From positions 1 through 64,000 of IMG/VR virus record IMGVR_UViG_3300034073_002131: DNA of 64,000 nucleotides, one strand, 5' to 3'. The translations under genes were made by a program, and so were the position numbers. The DNA comes from a virus. Numbering within the stretch: the stretch's first letter is position 1; every line of letters begins with the position of its first letter. Below are positions 1 through 12,093 of this stretch, in pieces. The notes under the pieces were generated by a model, which did no database searches, was not told the origin of the DNA, and was given only the letters and a program-made list of their open reading frames with translations.

Positions 1-83
1 GCCCAGGTGGTGAAATTGGTAGACACGCTGGTCTTAGAAGCCAGTGCTTCGGCGTGACGGTTCGAGTCCGTCCCAGGGCACCA
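1..83 (+). tRNA. tRNA-Leu(TAG)
   Basis: Cloverleaf, loop CT-TAG-AA, long variable arm, GGTTCGAGTCC, encoded ACCA. Confidence 0.95.
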
Positions 84-179
84 TACTAGAGCATATTGGC
101 ACAGTAATATTTTAGCTCGGTGAAAGCCTTGTGCGGAAACCCAGATGCTATAGCTTTACTCTAATATGTTCTAATATGG
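81..179 (+). ncRNA. Stem-closed structured RNA cassette A1 (unknown)
   Basis: ccatactagagcatattgg pairs with ctaatatgttctaatatgg (G-U compatible); internal gcaca/tgtgc stem and ggt-gaaa-gcc hairpin; no ORF. Confidence 0.6.
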
Positions 180-183
180 TAGA

Positions 184-280
184 TAGTCAATGTTAAAAAT
201 GGGTATTCAAAGTATCCGTTCCAAAAGGGTGCAAATCCTGATTAAGCATAGAGCTTGGTAAAAACAACATAGACTAGCCA
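184..280 (+). ncRNA. tRNA-like RNA with rearranged cloverleaf ending GCCA
   Basis: tagtcaatgtt/aacatagacta terminal stem with GCCA overhang; three internal hairpins, one T-loop-like (gg-tgcaaat-cc). Confidence 0.55.
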
Positions 281-465
281 TAGTTAAGTATTTTGTTCGT
301 CCTAGGTGAAATAAACAGGACATTGCAGCCCAGAGAAATAAGGGTACCCGGCCGGTATATCCCTAAAGCGGGCTGAAGTTAATCGTAGCCGATCCTTAGC
401 GGGATCATATGGTAGGAAGATTAACTCATGCGCGAGCAGGCAGTAAGCAAAATACTTTACTATGG
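278..465 (+). ncRNA. Stem-closed multibranched RNA cassette A2 (unknown)
   Basis: ccatagttaagtattttgtt / agcaaaatactttactatgg closing stem; internal helices gtcct/aggac, cagccc/gggctg, agttaatc/gattaact, gatcct/gggatc. Confidence 0.65.
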
Positions 466-550
466 ATGCGTAGCCAAACGGTTGACGGCAGCGGGCTGTA
501 AACTCGTGACATAAGAAACGCTGGTGGTTCGAATCCATCCGCATCCACCA
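464..550 (+). tRNA. tRNA-Tyr(GTA)
   Basis: Cloverleaf, CT-GTA-AA loop, long variable arm, ACCA. Confidence 0.93.
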
Positions 551-646
551 TATTGAAGCACATTAGAATCTGTAAAAAGATCAGGGCTGGTACACCACAT
601 ACCTCTCACAGAAAGTATGTATAGACCACAATGTGTTTCAATATGG
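548..646 (+). ncRNA. Stem-closed structured RNA cassette A3 (unknown)
   Basis: ccatattgaagcacatt / aatgtgtttcaatatgg 17-bp stem; internal acatac/gtatgt. Confidence 0.6.
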
Positions 647-968
647 CTGTTGACTGGCCCGATATATGGCACTCTAAAGCCTGAAGTGGGAAAACTTATT
701 TCTAGTCAACATCCGTAATTGCGCTGCTCACGCTGAACCTATAAACTCTAAACTGGTGACTAGGACGGGGTCGTACCCCATAACGATATTAGGCTGAATA
801 ACGATAACAGCTAAGTCTAGAGACCGCAGGGATGAGCACCTGCATATAATACATCCCGCAACGCTTAAATAGTCGTATCCCTAGACTATACTGCGCACTA
901 TGCGAAAAAAGTTACGAGTGATGGTGGACTACGTAATTGGACACTGGAGACCTGCGGGCCGTCGCCCA
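645..968 (+). ncRNA. Cluster of unassigned structured RNA modules
   Basis: ggctgttgactgg/ctagtcaacatcc stem (645-714); hairpins gggg-tcgta-cccc, gcagg-gatgagca-cctgc, tagtc..gacta; gtgatggt/gccgtcgc stem followed by CCA (918-968). Confidence 0.45.
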
Positions 969-1008
969 ATAGTAACAAGACACTATGAATCCACTTTAGG
1001 GAGTGGGG

Positions 1009-1096
1009 CCATAGTTCAACTCATACTGATTCGCTGGTGACTGCCAGAGATAGCTCTTTCAGGCTGAAGAATGGGTTTAAGTGAGTTGAACTATGG
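1009..1096 (+). ncRNA. Stem-closed multibranched RNA cassette A5 (unknown)
   Basis: ccatagttcaactcat / gtgagttgaactatgg stem; internal attc/gaat enclosing three small hairpins. Confidence 0.6.
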
Positions 1097-1112
1097 TTTT
1101 TTGGAGATAGCA

Positions 1113-1439
1113 ATGAGTCGTACTCTAAAAGATAAACCGCATACTATACAGTATCCAGAAGATCACTACTTGTATGATACTGTTCGTGTAGATACTGATC
1201 TAGGCTCAAGAATTGGATTTCGGTACATACAGGTTGCGGGCAAAAAGACTAAAAAACGTAGAAACTACTGTCACTTCCGGTGGTATAGCACAACTCCTAG
1301 TTGGTGGACTCGTATTACAATGACTCGTCCGCAACGACGTAAGAGTCGTATGTGGGAACAAGTCGTAACTAGAGCTGTAGACTTAGAGCTACAAGATCCT
1401 CCACTGCTGGGACGTAAACCACACATATATTATTATTAA
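1113..1439 (+). CDS. Basic hypothetical phage protein
   Basis: GGAG RBS then ATG at 1113; Arg/Lys-rich, PSWW..RP.RR motif. Confidence 0.7.
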   Translation: MSRTLKDKPHTIQYPEDHYLYDTVRVDTDLGSRIGFRYIQVAGKKTKKRRNYCHFRWYSTTPSWWTRITMTRPQRRKSRMWEQVVTRAVDLELQDPPLLGRKPHIYYY

Positions 1440-1511
1440 GGGCTGCGCGCAGGGACGCAAAGGTGATTTGCAATCATTTTCCGCTGGGATCGTTACCCAG
1501 GCGGTCCACCA
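1440..1511 (+). tRNA. tRNA-Ala(TGC), atypical
   Basis: Acceptor gggctgc/gcggtcc with G3-U70, A73, CCA; loop TT-TGC-AA; short D arm, T loop ATCGTTA. Confidence 0.75.
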
Positions 1512-1517
1512 TACAAT

Positions 1518-1594
1518 GCAGGGAATAGTGTTAGTGGCAAGCACGTCTGTCTGTGAAACAGAAAGTTAGGGATCGAAACCCGTTCACCTGCCCA
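1518..1594 (+). tRNA. tRNA-His(GTG)
   Basis: CT-GTG-AA loop, G-1:C73, CCA; bulged A in acceptor stem, T loop ATCGAAA. Confidence 0.8.
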
Positions 1595-1660
1595 GCCAAA
1601 TAAGATTTGGGAACCAACCCAAACAGCCCCGCAAGGGAACTTAAACACACGGAGATGTGT

Positions 1661-1858
1661 ATGATGGCATATAACGGATTAGACATTATTTCAGTCGATG
1701 TTCCGCTAATGCTTAGATTAATGGAATTTGCTAGAGAAGATGCTACTTCCGATAAGGATTTACACTTTGTAGCAGAGCACCTAATCAGGCTAATGCAAAC
1801 AAATACTCTCCTCACTATGAAACACTATGACGCAATAGTTGATAGAGGGGGTTTTTAA
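1661..1858 (+). CDS. Small hypothetical protein (VDVPL..RL.E..RED family)
   Basis: ORF with GGAG RBS; paralogous to the next ORF. Confidence 0.7.
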   Translation: MMAYNGLDIISVDVPLMLRLMEFAREDATSDKDLHFVAEHLIRLMQTNTLLTMKHYDAIVDRGGF

Positions 1859-2061
1859 TGGGCGATAAATACTATAAGTTCGTAGAGATTGAGGTTAGCC
1901 CTAAACTCATGAAAAAGCTCTTAGAGCACGTAAAAGACCCTAAGGTAACGCAAGATCATATAAACTATATGATGGAAAACTTGATGTGGTTAAGTAAACA
2001 CGACGAGTGCCTTACCCTAGATGAATATGAAGTAATCACAGAGAAACCCATAGTTAGCTAA
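1858..2061 (+). CDS. Small hypothetical protein, paralog of 1661-1858
   Basis: TAATG-coupled ORF; aligns by eye with the upstream protein. Confidence 0.7.
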   Translation: MGDKYYKFVEIEVSPKLMKKLLEHVKDPKVTQDHINYMMENLMWLSKHDECLTLDEYEVITEKPIVS

Positions 2062-2139
2062 CTGTGGTCAACAAGAAAGCTTGCCGGCTTTCTTTGTTGT
2101 TTTTAAACTCCAAAATAAAAATAAGAACAGGAGAACAAA

Positions 2140-2898
2140 ATGGCAGAATCAATCACACCTGCAGGCATGATGATGAGTGGTGGCGACGGTCTTTTCGGAG
2201 GCGGCGGTCTTATTGGCGGTCTTATCCTAGGCAGCTTGCTACGAAACAACGGCAATCTATTCGGAGGAGACGGCAACGTTGCTGGAGCGGTTCTTCGTAA
2301 CCCGCCCGAGCAGACTCAAGCTAATATGAGTTTAATGAGTGCTATCGGTCAAGTAGACAAAGCCGTAGCTGTTGGTACAGCAGCCATGGAAGCTTCACAG
2401 GCTGCACAAAGCGCAGCCCTAGTTGCAGAAATTGGTCGTACAACTGGCAACCTTGTTAGCCGCGTCGATGCTACTACTGCAGCAGTTAATGCTGGTACTA
2501 TGGTTCTTGCTCAACAACTAAATGGTGTTGAGAAGTCAATCATGGAAAACCGCTATGAGCTTAGCAAAGATATTCAAGCTGATGGCGACAAAACCCGTGC
2601 CCTAATTACTCAACAGTATGAGGCCACACTAAATCGTCAACTTACAGATGCTAACGCAGCAATTATTGCCCTACAAAGTAAACTAGATAATGGTGCGGTC
2701 GCTCGCGGTGTTGAAGTTACTACAACTAACAACATCAATCAGATGCAACAGCAACAGCAACAGCAAGCACAGTGGGGTCAGCTCTACAACGTGCTCTGGG
2801 GCTTAGCTCAAAACATTCGTAGTAACAACGAAGCAATTAATGTTGGCAGCGGCACACTTACTGCTAATCCAACAAACACAAATACAAATATTAGATAA
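2140..2898 (+). CDS. Gly-rich N-terminal, coiled-coil, Q/N-rich C-terminal protein
   Basis: AGGAG RBS; GGGGLIGGLILGSLL hydrophobic segment; poly-Q tract. Confidence 0.8.
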   Translation: MAESITPAGMMMSGGDGLFGGGGLIGGLILGSLLRNNGNLFGGDGNVAGAVLRNPPEQTQANMSLMSAIGQVDKAVAVGTAAMEASQAAQSAALVAEIGRTTGNLVSRVDATTAAVNAGTMVLAQQLNGVEKSIMENRYELSKDIQADGDKTRALITQQYEATLNRQLTDANAAIIALQSKLDNGAVARGVEVTTTNNINQMQQQQQQQAQWGQLYNVLWGLAQNIRSNNEAINVGSGTLTANPTNTNTNIR

Positions 2899-2915
2899 TC
2901 TCTAATTAACTGTTA

Positions 2916-2947
2916 GCCCCCCGTCCAAAAGATGCGGGGGCACTTTT
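2916..2947 (+). terminator. Intrinsic terminator-like hairpin
   Basis: gcccccc..ggggc stem followed by cttt tract. Confidence 0.6.
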
Positions 2948-2952
2948 ACTAG

Positions 2953-3540
<588 letters not shown>

Positions 3541-3541
3541 A

Positions 3542-3754
3542 ATGGAACAAGCAATAAGAATTTATCCACATAATTGCACACAACAACAACAAGACTTTAT
3601 TAGACTAGAAGAATCAGTAGATACTCTAGCAGCAGCAAGCCTAGCCCTAGCAAGCCAAGGTGCACACGCATATCAACAATTTATTGATGCGCGTCAAAAT
3701 TTTACACAACTAGTTCGTGCCATGGGCAAGAACTACAGATATGTAGAAATTTAA
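3542..3754 (+). CDS. Hypothetical protein
   Basis: ORF adjacent to collagen-like gene. Confidence 0.65.
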   Translation: MEQAIRIYPHNCTQQQQDFIRLEESVDTLAAASLALASQGAHAYQQFIDARQNFTQLVRAMGKNYRYVEI

Positions 3755-3756
3755 TA

Positions 3757-3785
3757 TTGATTTTACTAGTATAGCCGTGTATAAT
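3757..3785 (+). promoter_or_regulatory. Sigma70-type promoter
   Basis: TTGATT-17 nt-TATAAT. Confidence 0.7.
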
Positions 3786-3816
3786 AATTACTTCGGTGTT
3801 TGAAAAAAGAGAAAAA

Positions 3817-4002
3817 ATGACAAAACAAGAAGCACTACTAATACTTCAAGCTCTGCCGGACGACACCGAAGTAACCATTATTTTAGGTAAACACTCCCAA
3901 CCAAATCGCTGGCAGATGCCGTACACAATATCCTATCCACCAACACCTTATTGGCAAGACCCTTATAAGGTAACTTGTACTAGCTATGAAACCAAAACTT
4001 AA
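3817..4002 (+). CDS. Hypothetical protein
   Basis: ORF downstream of promoter. Confidence 0.55.
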   Translation: MTKQEALLILQALPDDTEVTIILGKHSQPNRWQMPYTISYPPTPYWQDPYKVTCTSYETKT

Positions 4003-4108
4003 ACCTCGTAATCCCTATGTGGCACTAGCACACAAACGACGTGCTGGCACACATACCAAAACCCACAAGCAGGTTCGTGGTCAACTCAATCGCAAACTGG
4101 ATGCATAA
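3986..4108 (+). CDS. Small basic protein (KPRNPYVA..RRAGTH), 40 aa
   Basis: Read directly, not in ORF track; stop is U8-A9-A10 of tRNA-Lys. Confidence 0.6.
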   Translation: MKPKLKPRNPYVALAHKRRAGTHTKTHKQVRGQLNRKLDA

Positions 4109-4170
4109 CTCAACGGTAGAGTAACCGGCTTTTAACCGGTAAGCTGTGGGTTCGATTCCCTCTGCATCCA
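4099..4170 (+). tRNA. tRNA-Lys(TTT)
   Basis: Cloverleaf, CT-TTT-AA loop; followed by CTA rather than CCA. Confidence 0.92.
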
Positions 4171-4233
4171 CTATATTAAAACACATTACTAAGAGTCCAG
4201 GTTCATAGCGTGGCATAGTGTGTTCCAATATGG
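4171..4233 (+). ncRNA. Stem-closed cassette A6 (unknown)
   Basis: ctatattaaaacacatt / agtgtgttccaatatgg stem, similar to A1 and A3. Confidence 0.55.
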
Positions 4234-4332
4234 AAGGGTTGCTAATATTGGCCTTAGGGCGAGCCTTATAAACTCGTAAGCACTGTCTAGATAAGGCAGT
4301 TAATGTGGGTTCGATTCCCACCCCTTCTACCA
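4232..4332 (+). tRNA. tRNA with TAT (Ile) anticodon and long variable arm
   Basis: ggaaggg/cccttct acceptor, CT-TAT-AA loop, ctgtct/aggcag variable helix, GGTTCGATTCC, ACCA. Confidence 0.8.
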
Positions 4333-4337
4333 TCAAT

Positions 4338-4431
4338 AGTGAGTTGGCTGAGCGGCTTAAGGCAGCGGTTTGCTAAACCGTCGATTCGGGTCACCCCGGG
4401 TCCGTGGGTTCGAATCCCACACTCACTGCCA
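4338..4431 (+). tRNA. tRNA-Ser(GCT)
   Basis: Cloverleaf, long variable arm, GCCA. Confidence 0.95.
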
Positions 4432-4442
4432 CGGAGAATACT

Positions 4443-4748
4443 ATGAATTACTCTACAGAAACGCTTATAGCAGCACTAGATGCTATAATTATTAAAGCAA
4501 AAAATGTTAAAAGGGGCGATAGCGTTAGCTGGAATTCAAGCGGCGGTACTGCTCGTGGCAAAGTCACCAAAGTAATTACAGATGGCGAAGAACAAGTTCC
4601 GGGCAGTAGTTTTAAGATTACCGGAACGCCTAATGATCCCGGTGCCTTAATTAGAGTCTATCGCGAAGAGGATGGCAAGTACAAGCCTACAGATACCATT
4701 GTAGGACATAAAGTAAAAACTCTAACAAAAATTCCTGCACTGGATTAA
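4443..4748 (+). CDS. Tudor/SH3-like protein (DUF2945/HVA1-like)
   Basis: GDSVSWNSSGGTARGKV and VGHKVKTL motifs. Confidence 0.65.
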   Translation: MNYSTETLIAALDAIIIKAKNVKRGDSVSWNSSGGTARGKVTKVITDGEEQVPGSSFKITGTPNDPGALIRVYREEDGKYKPTDTIVGHKVKTLTKIPALD

Positions 4749-4750
4749 CC

Positions 4751-4903
4751 ATGCCTTGCTATAAATGTTCAAATGGTAAGTATAAATATGGTCAACGTGG
4801 CAACTGCCAGTTTGACACCTTAGAGGCTTGTAAAGCTGCTGAAGCAGCTATTCATGCTCGTGAGTCCGAAAAACCTAAAAAAGAACAAAAACCTAAAAAA
4901 TAA
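4751..4903 (+). CDS. Small Cys-containing basic protein (MPCYKCSNGKYKYG), 50 aa
   Basis: Read directly, not in ORF track. Confidence 0.6.
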   Translation: MPCYKCSNGKYKYGQRGNCQFDTLEACKAAEAAIHARESEKPKKEQKPKK

Positions 4904-4905
4904 AT

Positions 4906-4982
4906 GCACCTATCGTCTAGTGGCCTAGGACAACTCCCTTTCACGGAGTAGATCGCGGGTTCGAATCCCGCTAGGTGTGCCA
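4906..4982 (+). tRNA. tRNA-Glu(TTC)
   Basis: Cloverleaf, CT-TTC-AC loop, GCCA. Confidence 0.94.
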
Positions 4983-4986
4983 TATA

Positions 4987-5065
4987 CTGAGTGTATTGTC
5001 AGCCCGGTTAGACGGCCGAGCTTGGAACTCGGAGGCCGCAGGTTCAAATCCTGCCACTCAGACCA
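4987..5065 (+). tRNA. tRNA-Pro(TGG)
   Basis: Cloverleaf, CT-TGG-AA loop, C1-G72, ACCA. Confidence 0.93.
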
Positions 5066-5070
5066 GATAC

Positions 5071-5146
5071 GCCGCTTTAGCTGATGTGGTCATAGCATGG
5101 GTCTGAAGAGCCCGGGAACCTGGTTCGATCCCAGGAGGCGGTACCA
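5071..5146 (+). tRNA. tRNA-Phe(GAA)
   Basis: Cloverleaf, CT-GAA-GA loop, ACCA. Confidence 0.93.
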
Positions 5147-5150
5147 CTAC

Positions 5151-5225
5151 ACCGGATTAGCTCAGTGGTAGAGCAATGTTTTGATAAAGCAGAGGTCACT
5201 GGTTCAATCCCAGTATCCGGTACCA
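5151..5225 (+). tRNA. tRNA-Ile(GAT)
   Basis: Cloverleaf, TT-GAT-AA loop, ACCA. Confidence 0.92.
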
Positions 5226-5226
5226 A

Positions 5227-5343
5227 TTTGAGTTAGCTATAGGACTCAAACCACTATAGCCGTTTACTATCACCGACAAAGATAGCGTCATCCATAACAG
5301 ACGATACGGGTTATGCCGGACAGGTAACCGGCTTTTTCTTTTT
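5227..5343 (+). ncRNA. Double-pseudoknot RNA ending in a terminator-like hairpin
   Basis: tttgagt/actcaaa with gctatag/ctatagc; cgtc/gacg with cataac/gttatg; gccgg/ccggc plus T-run. Confidence 0.5.
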
Positions 5344-5369
5344 ACACACACAACACACAAGGTCTTAAC

Positions 5370-5609
5370 ATGCCGACTAAAAATCCCTATGAAATCCGCA
5401 CTGAGTTGCTGCAACTTGCTCAGGGCTATCTTCAACAACAGTTTGAAGCTAACAAACAATTTGCAGAACAAACCTTTCACCAAATGGTAGAACTTGGTAA
5501 AGTTCAGCCTGAAGATTGGGCTAAGCATATGCCCAAGTTTTACGACTTTAAAGACATTTTAGAGAAAGCCAAAGAACTATACGGCTTTGTAAATAATGAA
5601 AGTCGCTGA
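5370..5609 (+). CDS. Conserved phage protein (KNPYEIR.ELL family)
   Basis: ORF with CA-rich leader and AAGG RBS. Confidence 0.75.
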   Translation: MPTKNPYEIRTELLQLAQGYLQQQFEANKQFAEQTFHQMVELGKVQPEDWAKHMPKFYDFKDILEKAKELYGFVNNESR

Positions 5610-5754
5610 TATGTGGCAGCGCGTCCTGGAATTTGTTCGTCCGTACACGTTCGAGGATTATGTCAAAGAATACGGTCCTAAAGATCATAAAGAACTAGAA
5701 GAACTAGAAAAACGTTGGCTAAGTACTAGTAACTGGTTCAATCGTTCACAATAA
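5596..5754 (+). CDS. Small protein, DUF3563-like (52 aa)
   Basis: Read directly: MKVADMWQRVLEFVRPYTFEDYV..D..ELEELEKRW. Confidence 0.5.
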   Translation: MKVADMWQRVLEFVRPYTFEDYVKEYGPKDHKELEELEKRWLSTSNWFNRSQ

Positions 5755-5761
5755 CAATTTT

Positions 5762-5835
5762 CGCGGGATAGAGTAAAGGCAATTCAGGAGTCTCATAAGC
5801 TCCAGATGGGGGTTCGATTCCCTCTCCCGCAACCA
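5762..5835 (+). tRNA. tRNA-fMet(CAT), initiator type
   Basis: C1-A72 mismatch, CT-CAT-AA loop, ACCA. Confidence 0.88.
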
Positions 5836-5845
5836 AGGACCACAT

Positions 5846-6304
5846 ATGAGTGCAACAATTAAAAACTTAGAAAGTGCCCTAGCTGGTGAATCTATGGCAC
5901 ATATTAAATACTTATACTTTGCAAAACTTGCTGAAGAACAAGGCTTTTGGGAAGTAGCAGACCACTTCTACTGGACTGCAGATCAGGAGATTAAACACGC
6001 TTGGGGTCATCTTGAGTTGCTGATCGGCAAGCCTAATGTAGTAGAGTCTCTTGAGATGGCAATTGCTGGCGAAACTTATGAGTATACACAAATGTATCCT
6101 GAGTTTAAGCAGATTGCCACGGCTGAGCAAAATCTAAAAGTTGCCGCAGAGTTCAAAGAGCAAGAAGCAGAATCGCAAGATCATGCTCAGCAATTTGCTG
6201 AAATTCTACAAAAAGCAGAAAAGCGATTTGCAGCCCTTGCTAAAGTCGAACAAAAGCACGCTGAAGCCTATAAACAAATTCTTAAGGGAGTAGACCATGA
6301 GTGA
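5846..6304 (+). CDS. Rubrerythrin (ferritin-like diiron domain)
   Basis: NLESALAGESMAH, EIKH, GETYEY..MYP, E..H diiron motifs. Confidence 0.9.
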   Translation: MSATIKNLESALAGESMAHIKYLYFAKLAEEQGFWEVADHFYWTADQEIKHAWGHLELLIGKPNVVESLEMAIAGETYEYTQMYPEFKQIATAEQNLKVAAEFKEQEAESQDHAQQFAEILQKAEKRFAALAKVEQKHAEAYKQILKGVDHE

Positions 6305-6440
6305 AGAACACGTTTGTGTAGTTTGCGGCTGGGTTTACGAAGGCAGCGAGCTTGACGAAGGCATTCACTGGAACGACCTTGAGCATGATTTTGAGTGTCC
6401 AGAGTGTGGCGTAGGTAAAAGCGATTTTGAAGTAGTTTAA
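6297..6440 (+). CDS. Rubredoxin (47 aa)
   Basis: Read directly: CVVCGWVY...W.DL..DF.CPECGVGKSDF. Confidence 0.9.
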   Translation: MSEEHVCVVCGWVYEGSELDEGIHWNDLEHDFECPECGVGKSDFEVV

Positions 6441-6451
6441 ACCTACTAATC

Positions 6452-6525
6452 CTCCCTATAGTGTAATGGCAGCATACCAGTCTCCAAAACTGTTGGTTGC
6501 GGTTCGAGTCCGTATGGGGAGGCCA
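6452..6525 (+). tRNA. tRNA-Trp(CCA)
   Basis: CT-CCA-AA loop, G73, CCA. Confidence 0.92.
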
Positions 6526-6539
6526 AGAAAATTTTTGTC

Positions 6540-6568
6540 TTGACCCTAAATCGCAGATTTGCTATAAT
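6540..6568 (+). promoter_or_regulatory. Sigma70-type promoter
   Basis: TTGACC-17 nt-TATAAT with extended TG. Confidence 0.8.
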
Positions 6569-6597
6569 ATTATTTCTGTGACAGTTTAGGAATCCAA

Positions 6598-6813
6598 ATG
6601 CAAGCATTAAATCAAGTTACTAGTCCTATGTTCTTGTTGCCTGCCTATGGCCGCCAGTATCGAACCCGTGAGCAAGTGCTCCGCGACTGGCAAGGGGGTA
6701 AAGACTTTCAAATTGAGGGTGGCCCCTACTGCTCGATTCGCGACCTTGACCTAATGCACAAGCAGTTTCAGAATATCTATATCCTGTACGACAGGGGAAC
6801 TGTACTAGTATAA
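6598..6813 (+). CDS. Hypothetical protein (PAYGR.Y...DW..GKDF family)
   Basis: ORF with AGGA RBS downstream of promoter. Confidence 0.7.
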   Translation: MQALNQVTSPMFLLPAYGRQYRTREQVLRDWQGGKDFQIEGGPYCSIRDLDLMHKQFQNIYILYDRGTVLV

Positions 6814-6818
6814 TTTAA

Positions 6819-6904
6819 GCCCCTGTGGTGGAATAGGTAGACACAAGGGACTTAAAATCCCTCGCTGAAAATGCGTGCCGGTTCGACTCCGGCCGGGGGC
6901 ACCA
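6819..6904 (+). tRNA. tRNA-Leu(TAA)
   Basis: CT-TAA-AA loop, long variable arm, ACCA. Confidence 0.95.
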
Positions 6905-6919
6905 CAGTTAGGAACTTAA

Positions 6920-7117
6920 ATGAAATACCCGTATGCTACGCTTAATATGTGTCTACGCAGTATGCTAGGCTCGCAAGAACTAGTAGACCGGTGGTACGAA
7001 TCGCCTAATCGTGCGTTTGATATGCAAACTCCGCTTCAAATGCTTGAAAGTGGTGACGAACCCCGTAGAACAGTATATAAATATATCCTAGCACAACTTA
7101 ACTATATTCCACAGTAG
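6920..7117 (+). CDS. Xre/MbcA/ParS antitoxin C-terminal-like domain protein
   Basis: LGSQELVDRWYESPNRAFDMQTPLQML pattern resembles DUF2384. Confidence 0.6.
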   Translation: MKYPYATLNMCLRSMLGSQELVDRWYESPNRAFDMQTPLQMLESGDEPRRTVYKYILAQLNYIPQ

Positions 7118-7182
7118 CTCAGCGGTAGAGCAGTTAACTGTTAATTAATTGGTCGTTGGTTCGATCCCAGCCTGTGGAGCCA
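7108..7182 (+). tRNA. tRNA-Asn(GTT)
   Basis: CT-GTT-AA loop, GCCA. Confidence 0.94.
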
Positions 7183-7184
7183 AG

Positions 7185-7258
7185 TGGGGTATAGTGAAAC
7201 GGTATCACACAGGATTTTGATTCCCATATTCTTGGTTCGACTCCAAGTACCCCTGCCA
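7185..7258 (+). tRNA. tRNA-Gln(TTG)
   Basis: TT-TTG-AT loop, GCCA. Confidence 0.92.
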
Positions 7259-7264
7259 CAAATC

Positions 7265-7735
7265 ATGAAACAATTCGACCTAGAAGAAATCAAAGAGTTT
7301 ATTAGTGCTCAAAGCCCAGACACCAAGATATACTTAGGCGCAGATAGTGAGCGTGTAAGTGGTGGTGATTGTTGGATGGCTGAATACTACTTAGCCGTCG
7401 TAGTACATCTAGAAGGCAAGCACGGCTGTAAAATATTTGGTCAGATTACTCGTGAGCGAGACTACGATCAGCGACAGGATAAACCTGCACTCCGACTTAT
7501 GGGTGAAGTTTATAAAGTAGCCGAACTATTTAATGAACTAAGCGACGTCTTACAAGACAGATATGTAGAAGTACACCTAGATATTAATCCAGATGATCGT
7601 TACGCAAGTTCACAAGTAGTATCGCAAGCTATTGGATATATTCGCGGTACGTGCAACATAGAAGCACAAGTTAAACCTCAAGCATTTGCAGCAAGTTACG
7701 CAGCAGACCGACTAAAATTTATTCTTTCAAACTAA
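7265..7735 (+). CDS. RNase H-like YkuK (DUF458) family protein
   Basis: IYLGADS, RL..EV, EVHLDINP, KP.AFAAS..AD motifs. Confidence 0.8.
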   Translation: MKQFDLEEIKEFISAQSPDTKIYLGADSERVSGGDCWMAEYYLAVVVHLEGKHGCKIFGQITRERDYDQRQDKPALRLMGEVYKVAELFNELSDVLQDRYVEVHLDINPDDRYASSQVVSQAIGYIRGTCNIEAQVKPQAFAASYAADRLKFILSN

Positions 7736-7736
7736 A

Positions 7737-7958
7737 ATGACTAAAGACCGCTTTGATCTTGAACAAGAAATCCTAGATTGCTGGCATATCACTGATGATC
7801 TACAGACTATTATGGAAACAGATAGTCTTAATCTTAGCGACGATGTGCATAATCTCCTACTTGGACTTAAGACTCTTTATCACCTTAAGTTTGAGCGTAC
7901 TTTTGCAACATTTGAGCAGTTAGTTGCCCAACGCAAGCTAGACCAACGAATTATGTGA
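7737..7958 (+). CDS. Conserved phage protein (DRFDLEQ.I..CW family)
   Basis: ORF; stop lies inside tRNA-Cys. Confidence 0.7.
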   Translation: MTKDRFDLEQEILDCWHITDDLQTIMETDSLNLSDDVHNLLLGLKTLYHLKFERTFATFEQLVAQRKLDQRIM

Positions 7959-8031
7959 CGGTGTTGCTGAACGGCTAGGCTGCAGTCTGCAAAACTGTGT
8001 TATGTGGGTTCAAGTCCCACCCGTCACTCCA
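7955..8031 (+). tRNA. tRNA-Cys(GCA)
   Basis: CT-GCA-AA loop, U73, CCA. Confidence 0.92.
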
Positions 8032-8035
8032 CACT

Positions 8036-8110
8036 GCCCCTTTAGCTCAGTGGTAGAGCAGCCGCCTTGTAAGCGGCAGGTCATCAGTTCGAATCCGATA
8101 GGGGGCACCA
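8036..8110 (+). tRNA. tRNA-Thr(TGT)
   Basis: CT-TGT-AA loop, ACCA. Confidence 0.94.
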
Positions 8111-8122
8111 CTAGGTATATGT

Positions 8123-8509
8123 ATGAACGAAGAACTTAAAGATTCCCTAAGTGAAATTGGCCGGGCATGGAACGAGGCTATGGATGCTATTGAACAAGCT
8201 AGCGAACGGTACTGGAATAGTTTAACTAAAGAACAACAGCTTGATGCGTTCTGTGCAGTATGCCGCCGCATCTACAAAGGTGACATTGAGGACAAAGGCA
8301 CTTACAGGTATGTCCTATACAACGTATTTGGTTTTGGTCCTGAAGCATACGCACAAGCACAAATGGCAGGATACCTGACTATTCATAACAGCATTTTTGA
8401 TGCTGATCACGATGACAACTTGCTAACTAAATTTGCTGAGTTTTGTGGGCTTGATGAGTCAAAAGTTAGTGAGTTTTGGAATCAGCATTCTTGGGCACAA
8501 AACCCATAA
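8123..8509 (+). CDS. Conserved hypothetical phage protein
   Basis: GTYRYVLY..FGFGP.AY motif. Confidence 0.75.
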   Translation: MNEELKDSLSEIGRAWNEAMDAIEQASERYWNSLTKEQQLDAFCAVCRRIYKGDIEDKGTYRYVLYNVFGFGPEAYAQAQMAGYLTIHNSIFDADHDDNLLTKFAEFCGLDESKVSEFWNQHSWAQNP

Positions 8510-8833
8510 TATGATCGTATGAAGTTGACCCAAAGGTGCTTTGGACGCGGGTTCGACTCCCGCCTGGTCCACCATAGATACATTACACCATTAACGCCAC
8601 GGGGTTATCTAGAGCTGCAGCTCGAAAAGCACACTGTGAGAAGTGCAGATAACAGTAGTGTATCTTTGATGGGCCAGTCATGGTTTCGACAGGGCAATGA
8701 GTAGCAATACAGACGATCCGACACAGATAGTCGTTAAAAGTAAACAAAAACAAACGCAAACGATGAAACGTTCGCATTAGCCGCCTAAACTCGGCTTAGG
8801 GTTCCAGGTTATCCTCGTAACAGAAAACCTGGA
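8510..8833 (+). ncRNA. ssrA: Circularly permuted (two-piece) tmRNA, tag ANDETFALAA
   Basis: Acceptor piece (GGAC-gcggg-TTCGACT-cccgc-ctggtcc-ACCA, ends 8574) precedes the coding piece (gggccag..GGTTTCGAC, starts 8671); G3-U70; tag frame 8756-8788. Confidence 0.9.
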
Positions 8834-8890
8834 CTTAAATGGCCATTTGGCATTTTTATTAACAATTCTTGCTCAATCGAGGAGAATAAG

Positions 8891-9331
8891 ATGACACTAA
8901 AAGATATTAATAAATACTTTCTAGGCTTTGATGAAGCTCAGGATCGCATTAACAAATTGCATACGCAAATGATTGCTAAGGCAAATGTTAACTATCCGCC
9001 TTATAATGTTCGTAAAACAGACGATCATAAATATCTCTTAGAACTAGCCGTTGCTGGGTTTAGGGAAAGTGAGATTAGTCTGGAAGTATCAAAAGGTGAA
9101 CTTGTAATTACTGCTCAAAAGTCTGAGCAGGAACAAGATAGTGAATATAAAGGCTGGATTCATCAAGGTATTGCCTACAGAGGCTTTACTCGTACCTTTT
9201 TCCTAGATAATCAGTATGAAGTCCTACATGCCGAGCTTAAAGACGGCTTGTTAAAAGTATACCTAGGCTTGCAAGAAACCATGAAGCCTAAGCGTATTCC
9301 TATTGGTGGACAACAGCATCTTGAACTTTAG
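8891..9331 (+). CDS. Small heat-shock protein Hsp20 (IbpA-like)
   Basis: NYPPYN, ELAVAGF, HQGIA.R.F.R.F, LKDGLL motifs. Confidence 0.92.
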   Translation: MTLKDINKYFLGFDEAQDRINKLHTQMIAKANVNYPPYNVRKTDDHKYLLELAVAGFRESEISLEVSKGELVITAQKSEQEQDSEYKGWIHQGIAYRGFTRTFFLDNQYEVLHAELKDGLLKVYLGLQETMKPKRIPIGGQQHLEL

Positions 9332-9419
9332 AAGCGTGGTCGAGTGGTTTAAGGCACCGGTCTTGAAAACCGACGATTCCGTAAGGGGTCCGTGAGTTCG
9401 AATCTCACCGCTTCTGCCA
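9330..9419 (+). tRNA. tRNA-Ser(TGA)
   Basis: CT-TGA-AA loop, long variable arm, GCCA. Confidence 0.95.
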
Positions 9420-9423
9420 ACAC

Positions 9424-9451
9424 AGAGGGTGCCCAGCACCCTCTATTTTTT
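9424..9451 (+). terminator. Intrinsic terminator
   Basis: agagggtgc-cca-gcaccctct plus T-run. Confidence 0.7.
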
Positions 9452-9587
9452 AAACTTGCGCCAATGAACCAAACAAAAATTCCGCCCAGTACTGGCTATA
9501 TCATCCCTATAGCAACTAAAATGTTCCTAAATTGGACTGTGGATGAGTGGGGTTTCTGGAATGTAGAAGTGCTAGTTTTAGACTAAT

Positions 9588-9770
9588 ATGATTTCACCCT
9601 GTATTAAAATATGTAAGCTAGACCCTAAACTGCAGATATGTATTGGCTGTTGGAGAACTAGGGAAGAAATTCAGGACTGGACAACCTACACAGATGAACA
9701 GCGACAGAAAATAGTAAATAGTCTTGCTCAACGATGGGCTAAACTAGCGGGTATAGTGTTTAACGGTTAG
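9588..9770 (+). CDS. DUF1289 Cys-rich (predicted Fe-S) protein
   Basis: SPCIKIC......C.GC.RT..EI..W. Confidence 0.85.
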   Translation: MISPCIKICKLDPKLQICIGCWRTREEIQDWTTYTDEQRQKIVNSLAQRWAKLAGIVFNG

Positions 9771-9824
9771 CACGCCAGTCTTCCAAACTCGAAGTGAGGA
9801 GTTCGAATCTCCCTACCCGCTCCA
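9747..9824 (+). tRNA. tRNA-Gly(TCC)
   Basis: CT-TCC-AA loop, U73, CCA. Confidence 0.93.
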
Positions 9825-10393
9825 TGAAAAAAATTATACTTTCCCTATTCGACTACAGCGGTAATTGGCCCAAGTACTACCGCGACAGCGGCCTATACGA
9901 TGTATATCAAGTAGACCTTAAACTTGGCCTAGATATACTTGATATAAATCCTGGTGAACTGCCACAGCCTATACACGGTATCTTAGCCGCTCCACCTTGC
10001 ACAGACTTTGCTAGTAGTGGAGCGCAATACTGGACGCAAAAAGATAGGGACGGTCGTACCCAACAAAGCCTACAACTAGTAGATAAAACCTTAGAGATTA
10101 TAAGTTATCACGAACCCAAATGGTGGGTAATTGAAAATCCTGTAGGCAGACTTGCAAAATTACGTCCTGAACTAGGTACCCCTTGGTATTTTCAGCCGTG
10201 GTGGTTTGGTGACGCCTACACCAAGAAAACAGGTTTGTGGGGCACATTTAATCGTGACCTACCACAGAGTCCAGTCGATCCCGACCCTAAATCGCCAATA
10301 ATGCGGTTAGGCGGTAAATCAGAACGAACCAAAGAATTGCGAAGCATGACTCCGCTTGGGTTTGCTCTTGCATTCTACTTAGCAAATCCCTAG
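9824..10393 (+). CDS. DNA cytosine-C5 methyltransferase (small phage type)
   Basis: LSLF..SG motif I, PPC catalytic motif, ENP motif; ATG overlaps the tRNA CCA. Confidence 0.8.
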   Translation: MKKIILSLFDYSGNWPKYYRDSGLYDVYQVDLKLGLDILDINPGELPQPIHGILAAPPCTDFASSGAQYWTQKDRDGRTQQSLQLVDKTLEIISYHEPKWWVIENPVGRLAKLRPELGTPWYFQPWWFGDAYTKKTGLWGTFNRDLPQSPVDPDPKSPIMRLGGKSERTKELRSMTPLGFALAFYLANP

Positions 10394-10466
10394 TACCTTA
10401 GCTCAGCGGTAGAGCGTCTCGTTTACACCGAGAGGGTCGGGGGTTCGAACCCCTCAGGTACTACCA
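10392..10466 (+). tRNA. tRNA-Val(TAC)
   Basis: TT-TAC-AC loop, ACCA. Confidence 0.94.
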
Positions 10467-10469
10467 AGC

Positions 10470-10757
10470 ATGCAACCCAAAGACACAGTACAAACTATCA
10501 ACTTTAAAGGTTATACGAATAACAAGTGCGAGTTCTTTCCTTGCCATACAGGAGTTAAAAAAGAATTTAACTGTTTATTTTGTTATTGCCCCCTAGTATT
10601 CCTAAAATGCCCCGGACCGTACAAAGTATTCCAAGACAAAAATGGCATTACCAGAAAAGATTGTAGTGCTTGTATCCTACCACATAACGGTATAGAACAA
10701 TCTTGGCGGTTTATTCAAGACTGGTTGGAGCGTCCCGAACCTTGGGATTATAAGTAA
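10470..10757 (+). CDS. Cysteine-rich small domain protein
   Basis: N..CEFFPCH....FNCLFCYCPL...KDCS.C..PH. Confidence 0.85.
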   Translation: MQPKDTVQTINFKGYTNNKCEFFPCHTGVKKEFNCLFCYCPLVFLKCPGPYKVFQDKNGITRKDCSACILPHNGIEQSWRFIQDWLERPEPWDYK

Positions 10758-10774
10758 AGTATAAAATTATTAAC

Positions 10775-10803
10775 TTGAACTGGCTTGGTATCTGTGATAT
10801 AAT
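10775..10803 (+). promoter_or_regulatory. Sigma70-type promoter
   Basis: TTGAAC-17 nt-TATAAT, extended TG. Confidence 0.75.
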
Positions 10804-10848
10804 ATTTATTATTACAGATACCAAGCCATTTATATTTAAGGCACAGAA

Positions 10849-11382
10849 ATGAACGTCTTTTTTTGTTCGGACCATCACTTTCATCACCAAAATATCTTAA
10901 AGTTTCTTCGTGATGACGGTACGCCATTACGTACATTTAGTGGCATCAATCATATGCACGAGCATATTATTGCTCAGCACAACAGTGTAGTAAAGCCTGA
11001 GGATAAAGTATATTTCTTGGGCGATGTTTGCATGACTAAGAATGCAGCCGGACTAGAAATTTTAGGTCGTCTTAATGGCACAAAAATATTAATTCGTGGT
11101 AATCATGACGAATGCAAGCTAGCACAGTACGCACAGTACTTTGATGATGTTCGTGGTGTGTGCCACAGGTACGGTGTAGTAATGACTCATGTGCCTATAC
11201 ATCCAGAAAGCCTAGATCGCTGGGGTACAAATCTACACGGACACCTACACTACCGGCGCGTTCTGTTACCAAACGGCCACCCAGATCCCAGATACATTAA
11301 TGTAAGCATGGAGTGCCTAGACAACTATACTCCACTTAGCCTAGACGAACTAAATAAACGGATTACAAAGAATGCAAAATAA
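10849..11382 (+). CDS. Calcineurin-like metallophosphoesterase
   Basis: DHH, LGD, GNHD, HGHLH motifs. Confidence 0.9.
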   Translation: MNVFFCSDHHFHHQNILKFLRDDGTPLRTFSGINHMHEHIIAQHNSVVKPEDKVYFLGDVCMTKNAAGLEILGRLNGTKILIRGNHDECKLAQYAQYFDDVRGVCHRYGVVMTHVPIHPESLDRWGTNLHGHLHYRRVLLPNGHPDPRYINVSMECLDNYTPLSLDELNKRITKNAK

Positions 11383-11566
11383 AAGCTGGCCGTGGCCAAA
11401 GAGCTCAGAAACCATAACTAATACTAATGCACAAAATACTGTCGTATACAGTCAAGTACCTGTAGGCAAACAAAACCTACTTACACTAAAAGATCCGGGT
11501 TGGATTGTTGGGGTATTCATTGGACTACTACTTTTCCTGCCACTCCTATACGCAGCATTTATGTAA
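11372..11566 (+). CDS. Small membrane protein
   Basis: C-terminal hydrophobic helix. Confidence 0.55.
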   Translation: MQNKSWPWPKSSETITNTNAQNTVVYSQVPVGKQNLLTLKDPGWIVGVFIGLLLFLPLLYAAFM

Positions 11567-11573
11567 CATATAC

Positions 11574-11651
11574 GGGCCTCTAGCTCACGGAGGTTAGAGC
11601 AACCGACTCATAATCGGTAGGTACTGGGTTCGACTCCCAGGGGGCCCACCA
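11574..11651 (+). tRNA. tRNA(CAT), probably Ile2 (lysidine type)
   Basis: gggcc acceptor and cga-ctcataa-tcg arm resemble bacterial tRNA-Ile2; elongator Met not excluded. Confidence 0.85.
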
Positions 11652-11656
11652 ATACT

Positions 11657-11902
11657 ATGAATAATATACCTTTACTATCACAAATTATTGAATTAGCTCA
11701 AGACGGGGAGATTAACGATCCTATTGACTGGGGCATGCTAAGTGTAGATGAAAACAGTGCCTACTTGCTAATTGCAAATGGGCTAGTAGACCTGTTTGGC
11801 TACCCAGAAACCGAACGTGAAATGTTGATTCTAGCAACATTGGTACGAACTACGGTAGAAAACTTTACCCTAAATCTGAAATTATTGGGAGATCCAAGTT
11901 GA
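11657..11902 (+). CDS. Hypothetical protein
   Basis: ORF track; co-oriented gene run. Confidence 0.7.
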   Translation: MNNIPLLSQIIELAQDGEINDPIDWGMLSVDENSAYLLIANGLVDLFGYPETEREMLILATLVRTTVENFTLNLKLLGDPS

Positions 11903-12093
11903 AAAAATATGTAGTAGCTTGTTATTTCGGCTACGCGAATGATGTAGAACAATGTATTGTACAAGCAGATAACGAATTTGACGCCGTAGTAGACTTTTTA
12001 CAAACTAAACCTCCAGGAATTAATGATCTTGATGAACTCTTAGAGTGGTGTTGGGATCAAGAAATGATTATTAACTTTATTGAAATTAACTAA
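11899..12093 (+). CDS. Hypothetical protein
   Basis: Overlapping TTG start with GGAG RBS. Confidence 0.6.
   Translation: MKKYVVACYFGYANDVEQCIVQADNEFDAVVDFLQTKPPGINDLDELLEWCWDQEMIINFIEIN

Follow-up and report, generated by a model that had tools for sequence, protein, structure and literature searches.

Why should the spacers in a phage array of transfer RNA (tRNA) genes fold into long hairpins that begin on the 3′ end of one RNA and, as a rule, close on the first bases of the next? The question is raised by positions 1 to 64,000 of the IMG/VR virus record IMGVR_UViG_3300034073_002131 (the window), which form the first 64 kb of a complete phage genome of 98,028 bp that has a G+C content of 39.6% and ends in direct terminal repeats. 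On the + strand at 1–11651, ARAGORN and Rfam call about 22 tRNA genes and one for transfer-messenger RNA (tmRNA), which is circularly permuted. A sequence-only reading of this DNA had proposed that six spacers in the array run from CCA (once CUA) to UAUGG or GAUGG and are closed by long stems. All six stems were found where it placed them, and the pattern is far beyond chance. These hairpins, here called cassettes A to F, belong to a widespread phage family in which a conserved closing stem holds exchangeable interiors.

The stems start on the CCA of tRNA-Leu (A), module X1 (B), tRNA-Tyr (C), module X2 (D) and the acceptor piece of the tmRNA (F), and on the CUA of tRNA-Lys (E). At the other end, the suggestion that the closing GG doubles as the 5′ end of the following RNA holds for X1 (178), tRNA-Tyr (464), X2 (645), the tRNA at 4232 and the coding piece of the tmRNA (8671), the GG being their first two bases. 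An ungapped arm search recovered B, C, D and F (arms in Table 1); A (81–179) and E (4171–4233) have stems of 17–19 bp when G-U pairs are allowed. The arms had also been regarded as related across copies. This is true of A, C and E, which carry variants of one sequence, whereas B, D and F have only CCAUAG...UAUGG/GAUGG in common.

Beyond the window, the canonical form of the stem has 17 bp, lengthened in part to 19 bp, and reads, on the sense strand, CCAUAUUGAAACACAUU paired with AGUGUGUUUCAAUAUGG. The arm pattern is present in at least 118 IMG/VR loci; among the loci listed, 81 have three or more tRNAs. These loci contain 1084 tRNAs whose CCA is encoded; in about 90 of them this CCA is also the start of a CCAUA...UAUGG hairpin. 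Behind a few of the 1084 stand stems that are just as long and differ greatly in sequence, yet still start at CCA and end in UGG. Divergent members also occur in a cultured cyanophage, Synechococcus phage BUCT-ZZ01, where the covariance model built from the stems (R1) scores about 24 bits. The same phage (locus L119) carries at 6088–6236, after tRNA-Tyr, a tRNA-like RNA that is closed by ACACAAG/CUUGUGU plus ACCA and has two T-arm-like hairpins.

Pairing in this stem is maintained as pairing. Over the 17 positions of 71 unique cassettes anchored on a tRNA CCA, there are 1083 Watson–Crick pairs, 92 G-U, 24 A-C and 8 other combinations; 17 of the 24 A-C mismatches fall at position 8, and pairing fades at positions 18–20. 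Several pair types are found at positions 7, 8, 11, 14 and 16, the last being U-G in 45 copies, U-A in 13 and C-G in 10. In 62 aligned cassettes 97.5% of stem positions are paired, compared with 91.3% in shuffles, none of 500 of which reaches the observed value. Changes on both sides of a pair (compensatory changes) are seen in 9 of the 17 stem pairs, and slid controls give 30–55% pairing. The predominance of G-U over A-C (92 against 24) means that selection acts on the RNA strand. The same follows from R1, which scores 41–59 bits on A, C, D and E and favours the tRNA strand over the opposite one (for A, 40.9 bits on + and 34.2 bits on −). Selection at the RNA level, which had been suggested from G-U-compatible substitutions, is thus borne out both by these counts and by covariation.

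The cassette is essentially confined to phages. A gapped pattern search of 185,579 bacterial and archaeal species genomes (GTDB, one genome per species) gave a single match, located on a 1.5-kb contig of a freshwater metagenome-assembled genome. An origin in host tRNA operons was rejected on this count. Pairing of a leader and a trailer around each tRNA, in the style of the ribosomal RNA (rRNA) stalks, was rejected as well, as neighbouring cassettes in the window carry different arms.

What the stems enclose is far more variable. The interiors of 97 unique cassettes form 69 clusters, in keeping with the proposal that the interiors are unrelated to each other. As wholes, all six hairpins of the window are more stable than dinucleotide shuffles (z −2.4 to −5.6). 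Some interiors are conserved: the same ones are retained between distant contigs, and a 113-nt type found after tRNA-Glu is predicted to form 43 pairs, of which 11 show compensatory changes, in five sequences. In about one-tenth of interiors, a T-arm-like hairpin lies directly beside the 3′ arm. The interior of cassette E (29 nt) is found again in six loci outside the close relatives of this phage, which amount to five distinct contexts because L003 and L021 are identical there; upstream of it lie tRNA-Glu, Pro, Thr or Lys, or sequence that is not a tRNA.

None of the window interiors, nor X1 or X2, matches an Rfam family (positions 1–12000, E ≤ 1). In 11 related loci, only tRNA, tmRNA and one group I intron reach the Rfam gathering score among the best 150 of 186 matches. 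A group I intron match of 53.4 bits lies in a cassette-rich phage tRNA array (L023, 13185–13378, − strand). Bacterial Y RNA (YrlA) acting with Ro (Rsr) was considered for the interiors and rejected, since no TROVE domain was found and there was no Rfam match at E ≤ 1. A search for the RNA ligase RtcB, as a sign of circular RNAs, found none. Of the earlier idea of a library of small RNAs, the reusable hairpins and the separately conserved interiors stand; site D, which is reduced to a 13-nt loop in close relatives, does not fit it.

Whole cassettes are gained, lost or swapped exactly at the CCA/GG borders in close relatives. Eight contigs are 89–99% identical in nucleotide sequence to this part of the array. 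Cassette A and X1 are missing from all close relatives, where tRNA-Leu joins cassette B directly; B itself is 97–99% identical. L124 and L125 lack the unit of tRNA-Tyr and cassette C, so that X2 follows immediately on B, and in L123 the place of cassette C is taken by a cassette whose arms are different. At site D the outer arm stays the same around three interiors, of 88, 84 or 36 nt. The tmRNA gene has an intervening segment of 101 nt in the window and in L123, and of 64 nt with other arms in L124 and L125; that of L006 carries the canonical inner arm. The breakpoints of exchange are the CCA/GG borders or lie inside the arms.

Such behaviour raises the question of whether the cassettes are mobile at the DNA level, as elements like miniature inverted-repeat transposable elements (MITEs) or integron attC sites, inserted by a recombinase or transposase at a palindromic CCA-UAU-GG junction between tRNA genes. 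The arms do form near-perfect 17-bp inverted repeats, presence and absence in close relatives coincide with the CCA/GG borders, one interior (E) stands behind five different upstream RNAs, and a palindromic junction without a cassette, CCATATGG, exists in L008, L051 and L032. However, the asymmetry between G-U and A-C on the tRNA strand, and the preference of R1 for that strand, are properties of an RNA. Within one genome, the interiors of different copies are unrelated, as are the arms of some, which pair nevertheless; the complete genome has no tyrosine recombinase (integrase, PF00589) or HUH transposase domain; and there is no clear target-site duplication. A MITE or transposon was rejected on these grounds, its inverted repeats notwithstanding. 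An integron attC system was rejected too: there is no PF00589 match in the complete genome and, by inspection, the arm GTTTCAA misfits GTTRRRY. Mobility of this kind is thus very unlikely. The sequence-only reading had offered a small inverted-repeat element as its alternative; the coming and going of whole units at CCA/GG borders agrees with that, while the missing transposase or integrase and the G-U asymmetry do not. As neither integrase nor HUH transposase is encoded, homologous recombination in shared arms would be the simplest route of exchange.

A clue to the role of the stem comes from phage T5. In GenBank AY543070, RNAI, RNAIII, RNAIV, RNA2H and others in the T5 tRNA region are annotated as 'stable RNA with unknown functions'. 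RNAIII has RNAI, whose 3′ end is GCCA, on its upstream side and tRNA-His on its downstream side. The arms of the RNAIII stem are CCACAAUUGAAAAUUCG and CGAGUUUUCAAUUGUGG; the duplex that they form opens with the CCA of RNAI and takes in the first four bases of tRNA-His (GUGG) at its other end. Annotated RNAIII ends inside the stem with a 2-nt 3′ overhang. The annotated ends of RNA2H, which has no tRNA neighbour, also fall within a stem and leave a 2-nt 3′ overhang, and those of RNAIV leave 1 nt. By analogy, the geometry of the RNAIII and RNA2H ends is that of RNase III products. RNAIII is also the best match of R1 in the 14-kb T5 tRNA region (13.6 bits, E = 0.025).

On balance, and by this analogy, the stems are probably cut by a double-strand-specific RNase, which would most likely be the RNase III of the host, freeing the flanking tRNAs together with a stable hairpin RNA. 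We infer that this phage transcribes its array into long RNAs made up of tRNAs, the two tmRNA pieces and other GG...CCA RNAs, interspersed with hairpin cassettes. The closing stem of 15–20 bp (canonically 17) extends from the upstream CCA to U plus the downstream GG, and a staggered double-strand cut inside it, most likely by host RNase III, would separate the neighbours. 3′ exonucleases and RNase P could then remove the short trailers and leaders, the CCA being repaired if necessary, and the inner ~10 bp of the stem would be released with the interior as a stable hairpin RNA. Recombination in the near-constant arms, or at the CCA/GG borders, would move cassettes between positions and phages, with or without a neighbouring tRNA.

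Two observations agree with processing by such a cut. The encoded 3′ end of tRNA-Lys (4169–4171) is CUA in the window and CCA in the relative L043, and the cassette stem stays paired (U-G); this CUA could be tolerated only at a 3′ end that undergoes trimming and rebuilding, or under selection for the pairing itself. Copies that lack a CCA anchor still have the inner arm, and so does the L006 tmRNA segment; this fits, because a cut like that of RNAIII would leave the inner arm on the product. The sequence-only reading had likewise envisaged release at an RNase III-like site. A reusable hairpin family with a standard duplex is what has been found, and for the enzyme RNase III is the best-fitting candidate by analogy with the T5 ends. 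A phage-encoded RNase III was looked for and none was found.

This scheme has several points against it. RNA-level data for the phage are confined to assembled RNA-library contigs, the T5 end coordinates are those of the annotation, the 3′ end of RNAIII could equally be explained as an RNase P product, and the R1 score for RNAIII is marginal. A cassette is absent from most tRNA–tRNA junctions of these arrays, which means that tRNA maturation can do without one. RNase III is known to need less conservation of stem sequence than is seen here, and such strong conservation may point to another partner. Finally, the reduction of cassette D to a 13-nt loop means that at least some interiors are dispensable.

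Several of these points would suit another explanation, in which the cassettes are passive spacers, or folding insulators for tRNA-like domains, that are removed by RNase E or exonucleases behind the CCA and by RNase P ahead of the GG and then degraded, the interiors being neutral filler. RNase E prefers AU-rich sites, and the UAUU after the CCA would fit this preference; the U before the GG suits RNase P. Interiors turn over fast, as far as the small loop of D, and at most junctions there is no cassette whatever. Filler would nevertheless not be expected to be conserved between distant contigs with compensatory changes, nor an insulator to have its stem sequence, including the U-G at position 16, conserved far beyond its need, and T5 RNAIII, RNAIV and RNA2H are annotated as stable RNAs. 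Passive spacing therefore seems unlikely in comparison with processing at the stem.

If the stem sequence does answer to another partner, this could be a protein. Inside the array, the open reading frame (ORF) at 7265–7735 (+) matches the Pfam family RNaseH_like PF04308 (YkuK/DUF458) with 64.6 bits. YkuK/DUF458 is an uncharacterised RNase H-fold family (PMC3985635), and the product is a candidate RNA-processing nuclease. In this explanation, the inner 10-bp stem (GAAACACAUU paired with AGUGUGUUUC) would be a handle for the YkuK-like protein, or for a host protein that is sponged. One version would have it mimic the 5′ handle AUUGAAAC of CRISPR RNA (crRNA), with interiors as effector or decoy modules; AUUGAAAC, contained in the 5′ arm, is presumably a common crRNA tag. 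The inner arm is indeed kept where the outer part differs, in the L006 tmRNA segment and in copies without a CCA anchor. Of about 115 cassette loci, 23 have homologues of the PF04308 ORF; so do 4 of 4 complete genomes with cassettes, as against 79 of 50,697 phage records. On the other hand, KVP40 has a PF04308 gene and no canonical cassettes, while T5 has RNAIII-type cassettes and no PF04308, so that the link of this gene may simply be with large tRNA arrays. Moreover, only 56% of copies have a G at position 8 of the arm. A handle function of this sort is quite improbable. A broader proposal is that the cassettes form an exchanged, phage-specific small-RNA toolkit with one processing stem, whose retained 10-bp handle would recruit a common protein, and with interiors that would serve as decoys or effectors directed at host defences or host RNA machinery; this is doubtful. 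If true, it would be the modular RNA counterpart of the anti-defence islands of protein genes.

Table 1. RNA features of the tRNA array; stem and arm data are given for the cassettes, z values compare folds with dinucleotide shuffles.
Feature	Position	Strand	Description
tRNA-Leu(UAG)	1–83	+	ARAGORN; Rfam tRNA 54.6 bits; CCA at 81–83 = first three bases of cassette A
Cassette A	81–179	+	99-nt hairpin; stem ~19 bp, canonical-variant arms; −32.2 kcal/mol, z −3.85
Module X1	178–280	+	structured RNA of ~103 nt, GG to GCCA; fold z −4.31
Cassette B	278–465	+	188 nt; 18-bp stem, 152-nt interior; z −4.74; last GG opens tRNA-Tyr; arms 278–295/448–465, 18 nt, 94% complementary
tRNA-Tyr(GUA)	464–550	+	between cassettes B and C; ARAGORN, Rfam
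Cassette C	548–646	+	99 nt; canonical 17-bp stem; z −4.18; R1 59.3 bits; arms 548–564/630–646, 17 nt, 94% complementary
Module X2	645–1011	+	ORF-free RNA, 367 nt, GG to GGCCA
Cassette D	1009–1096	+	88 nt; stem 15–20 bp; z −5.57; arms 1009–1023/1082–1096, 15 nt, 100% complementary (20 bp if extended with G-U)
tRNA-Lys(UUU)	4099–4171	+	ARAGORN; encoded 3′ end CUA
Cassette E	4169–4233	+	~63 nt; 29-nt interior; z −2.68; R1 47.8 bits; last GG opens next tRNA
Long tRNA	4232–4332	+	~98–101 nt, directly 3′ of cassette E; Rfam tRNA 39.4 bits
Permuted tmRNA, acceptor piece	8513–8574	+	ends ACCA; RF04321 126 bits, RF01850 143 bits
Cassette F	8572–8672	+	intervening segment of the permuted tmRNA gene; stem prolongs acceptor stem; arms 8564–8586/8655–8677, 23 nt, 83% complementary
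tmRNA coding piece	8671–8858	+	starts GGGCCAG; ARAGORN, Rfam

The setting of these features is an uncultured phage with T5-like replication genes, namely a family A DNA polymerase, a DnaB-type helicase, an NAD-dependent ligase and ribonucleotide reductase. The DNA polymerase shares 49% identity with the enzyme of Vibrio phage Thalassa (Demerecviridae), which by this gene is the nearest cultured relative and has no annotated tRNA in its first 45 kb. ARAGORN calls the tmRNA as permuted (two-piece) with the tag ANDETFALAA. X1 receives no tRNA call from ARAGORN or Rfam. X2 is 89–93% identical in 8 relatives, with a consensus fold of 98 pairs of which 4 are compensatory; a 31-nt stretch close to its 3′ end is also present in L045, L103 and L115. 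Cassette D is followed by six U and then by the ribosome-binding site of the ORF at 1113–1439, and may possibly double as a terminator. The tRNA at 4232–4332 is 99% identical in all close relatives. It has a long extra arm and, by eye, an anticodon loop CUUAUAA, which gives the anticodon UAU; ARAGORN missed it in the window, and in L016 and L071 called a tRNA-Ile(tat) of 94–99 nt.

Among the assembled contigs of public RNA runs, two give weak hints at best. One, of riverine origin, covers 188–425 (X1 and the start of cassette B) with 3 differences; the other ends at 8572, inside the CCA of the acceptor piece, and continues into adapter.

Other parts of the region stand apart from the cassettes. 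At 1441–1594 (+) there is a segment of ~70 nt with a T-arm-like hairpin and the 3′ end CCACCA, followed by a marginal tRNA match at 1519–1591 (29.8 bits; anticodon GUG, His, by eye). The longest inverted repeat of the region, at 10770–10839, has 30-nt arms that are 83% complementary and a 10-nt loop. The ORF at 10849–11382 (+) has a weak match to calcineurin-like phosphoesterases (17.2 bits, below the cut-off), and its homologues in 17 cassette-bearing loci make it the second commonest protein near these arrays. The protein genes among the tRNAs (2962–3540, 4443–4748 and 8891–9331, +) include those of collagen-repeat, Hva1_TUDOR-domain and HSP20-family proteins.

Phage tRNA arrays are usually read as sets for codon supply or anti-defence. 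The cassettes indicate that they hold a second, far more variable layer of small RNAs on a common chassis. This family is widespread among environmental phages, which differ greatly in type, and is found neither in Rfam nor in the literature searched, which gave no description of the T5 stable RNAs, of hairpins in phage tRNA arrays or of DUF458 function. Its probable foothold in cultured T5-like coliphages, in Salmonella phages and in a cultured cyanophage makes processing and function testable with host RNase mutants. The family may also explain the T5 stable RNAs still annotated with unknown functions, and its members offer a natural design for freeing arbitrary small RNAs from tRNA-punctuated transcripts. 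The cassettes are an uncharacterised kind of phage RNA, though probably not a wholly unprecedented one.

Among known systems, the PeSL promoter stem-loops of T4-type phages are mobile regulatory cassettes, made of promoter-bearing DNA that flanks small protein genes. Both have short conserved module borders that allow shuffling between related phages, but the borders of the present cassettes are RNA stems inside tRNA arrays. The species 1 and 2 RNAs of T4 (rnaC and rnaD) are likewise small stable RNAs of unassigned function in a phage tRNA cluster. They were rejected as members for want of a CCA-anchored long closing stem; rnaC resembles a tRNA and has a T arm, the 3′ end of rnaD is CACCA, and both are closer to the GG...CCA modules X1 and X2 than to the cassettes.

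RNase III processing stalks include the stems that flank 16S and 23S rRNA, the intervening sequences of 23S rRNA and the early sites of T7 (R1.1). Like them, the cassettes present a long, nearly perfect duplex (15–20 bp, about two helical turns) in a polycistronic precursor of stable RNAs. An rRNA stalk encloses the useful RNA, whereas the cassette stem sits between useful RNAs and encloses a variable insert; and its sequence is conserved across very different phages. In circularly permuted tmRNA genes (RF04321, RF01850; PMC11915505), an intervening segment is removed during maturation. Cassette F is exactly such an intervening hairpin, linking the acceptor piece, which ends in ACCA, with the coding piece, which starts with GGG. 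Cassettes A–E differ in that they join independent RNAs, not the halves of one.

The closest parallel is T5 RNAIII, which qualifies the earlier statement that the cassettes belong to no named family: Rfam has no match, yet an annotated stable RNA of T5 is built in the same way. It too lies in the tRNA region of a T5-type phage, with a stem of at least 17 bp that leads from an upstream CCA into the first bases of tRNA-His, and its arm has AUUGAAA in common with the canonical arm. The block of RNAI, RNAIII and tRNA-His is present in hundreds of T5-like records. Three different interiors are found at this site: 118 nt in T5 and CitS1, 133 nt in polluks, and 75 nt in S113 and atrejo. In these phages the outer arm, in which CCACAAUUGA pairs with UCAAUUGUGG, is constant, and the inner arms and interiors are unrelated. 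The differences are the register of the arm (CCACAAUUGA compared with the canonical CCAUAUUGA) and the lack in T5 of a permuted tmRNA and of a PF04308 gene; furthermore, the T5 RNAs are reported to be stable, while the cassettes of the window are known from sequence. The canonical family probably includes T5 RNAIII, and the cassettes are probably a widespread variant of what this RNA appears to be: a constant stem with exchangeable interiors.

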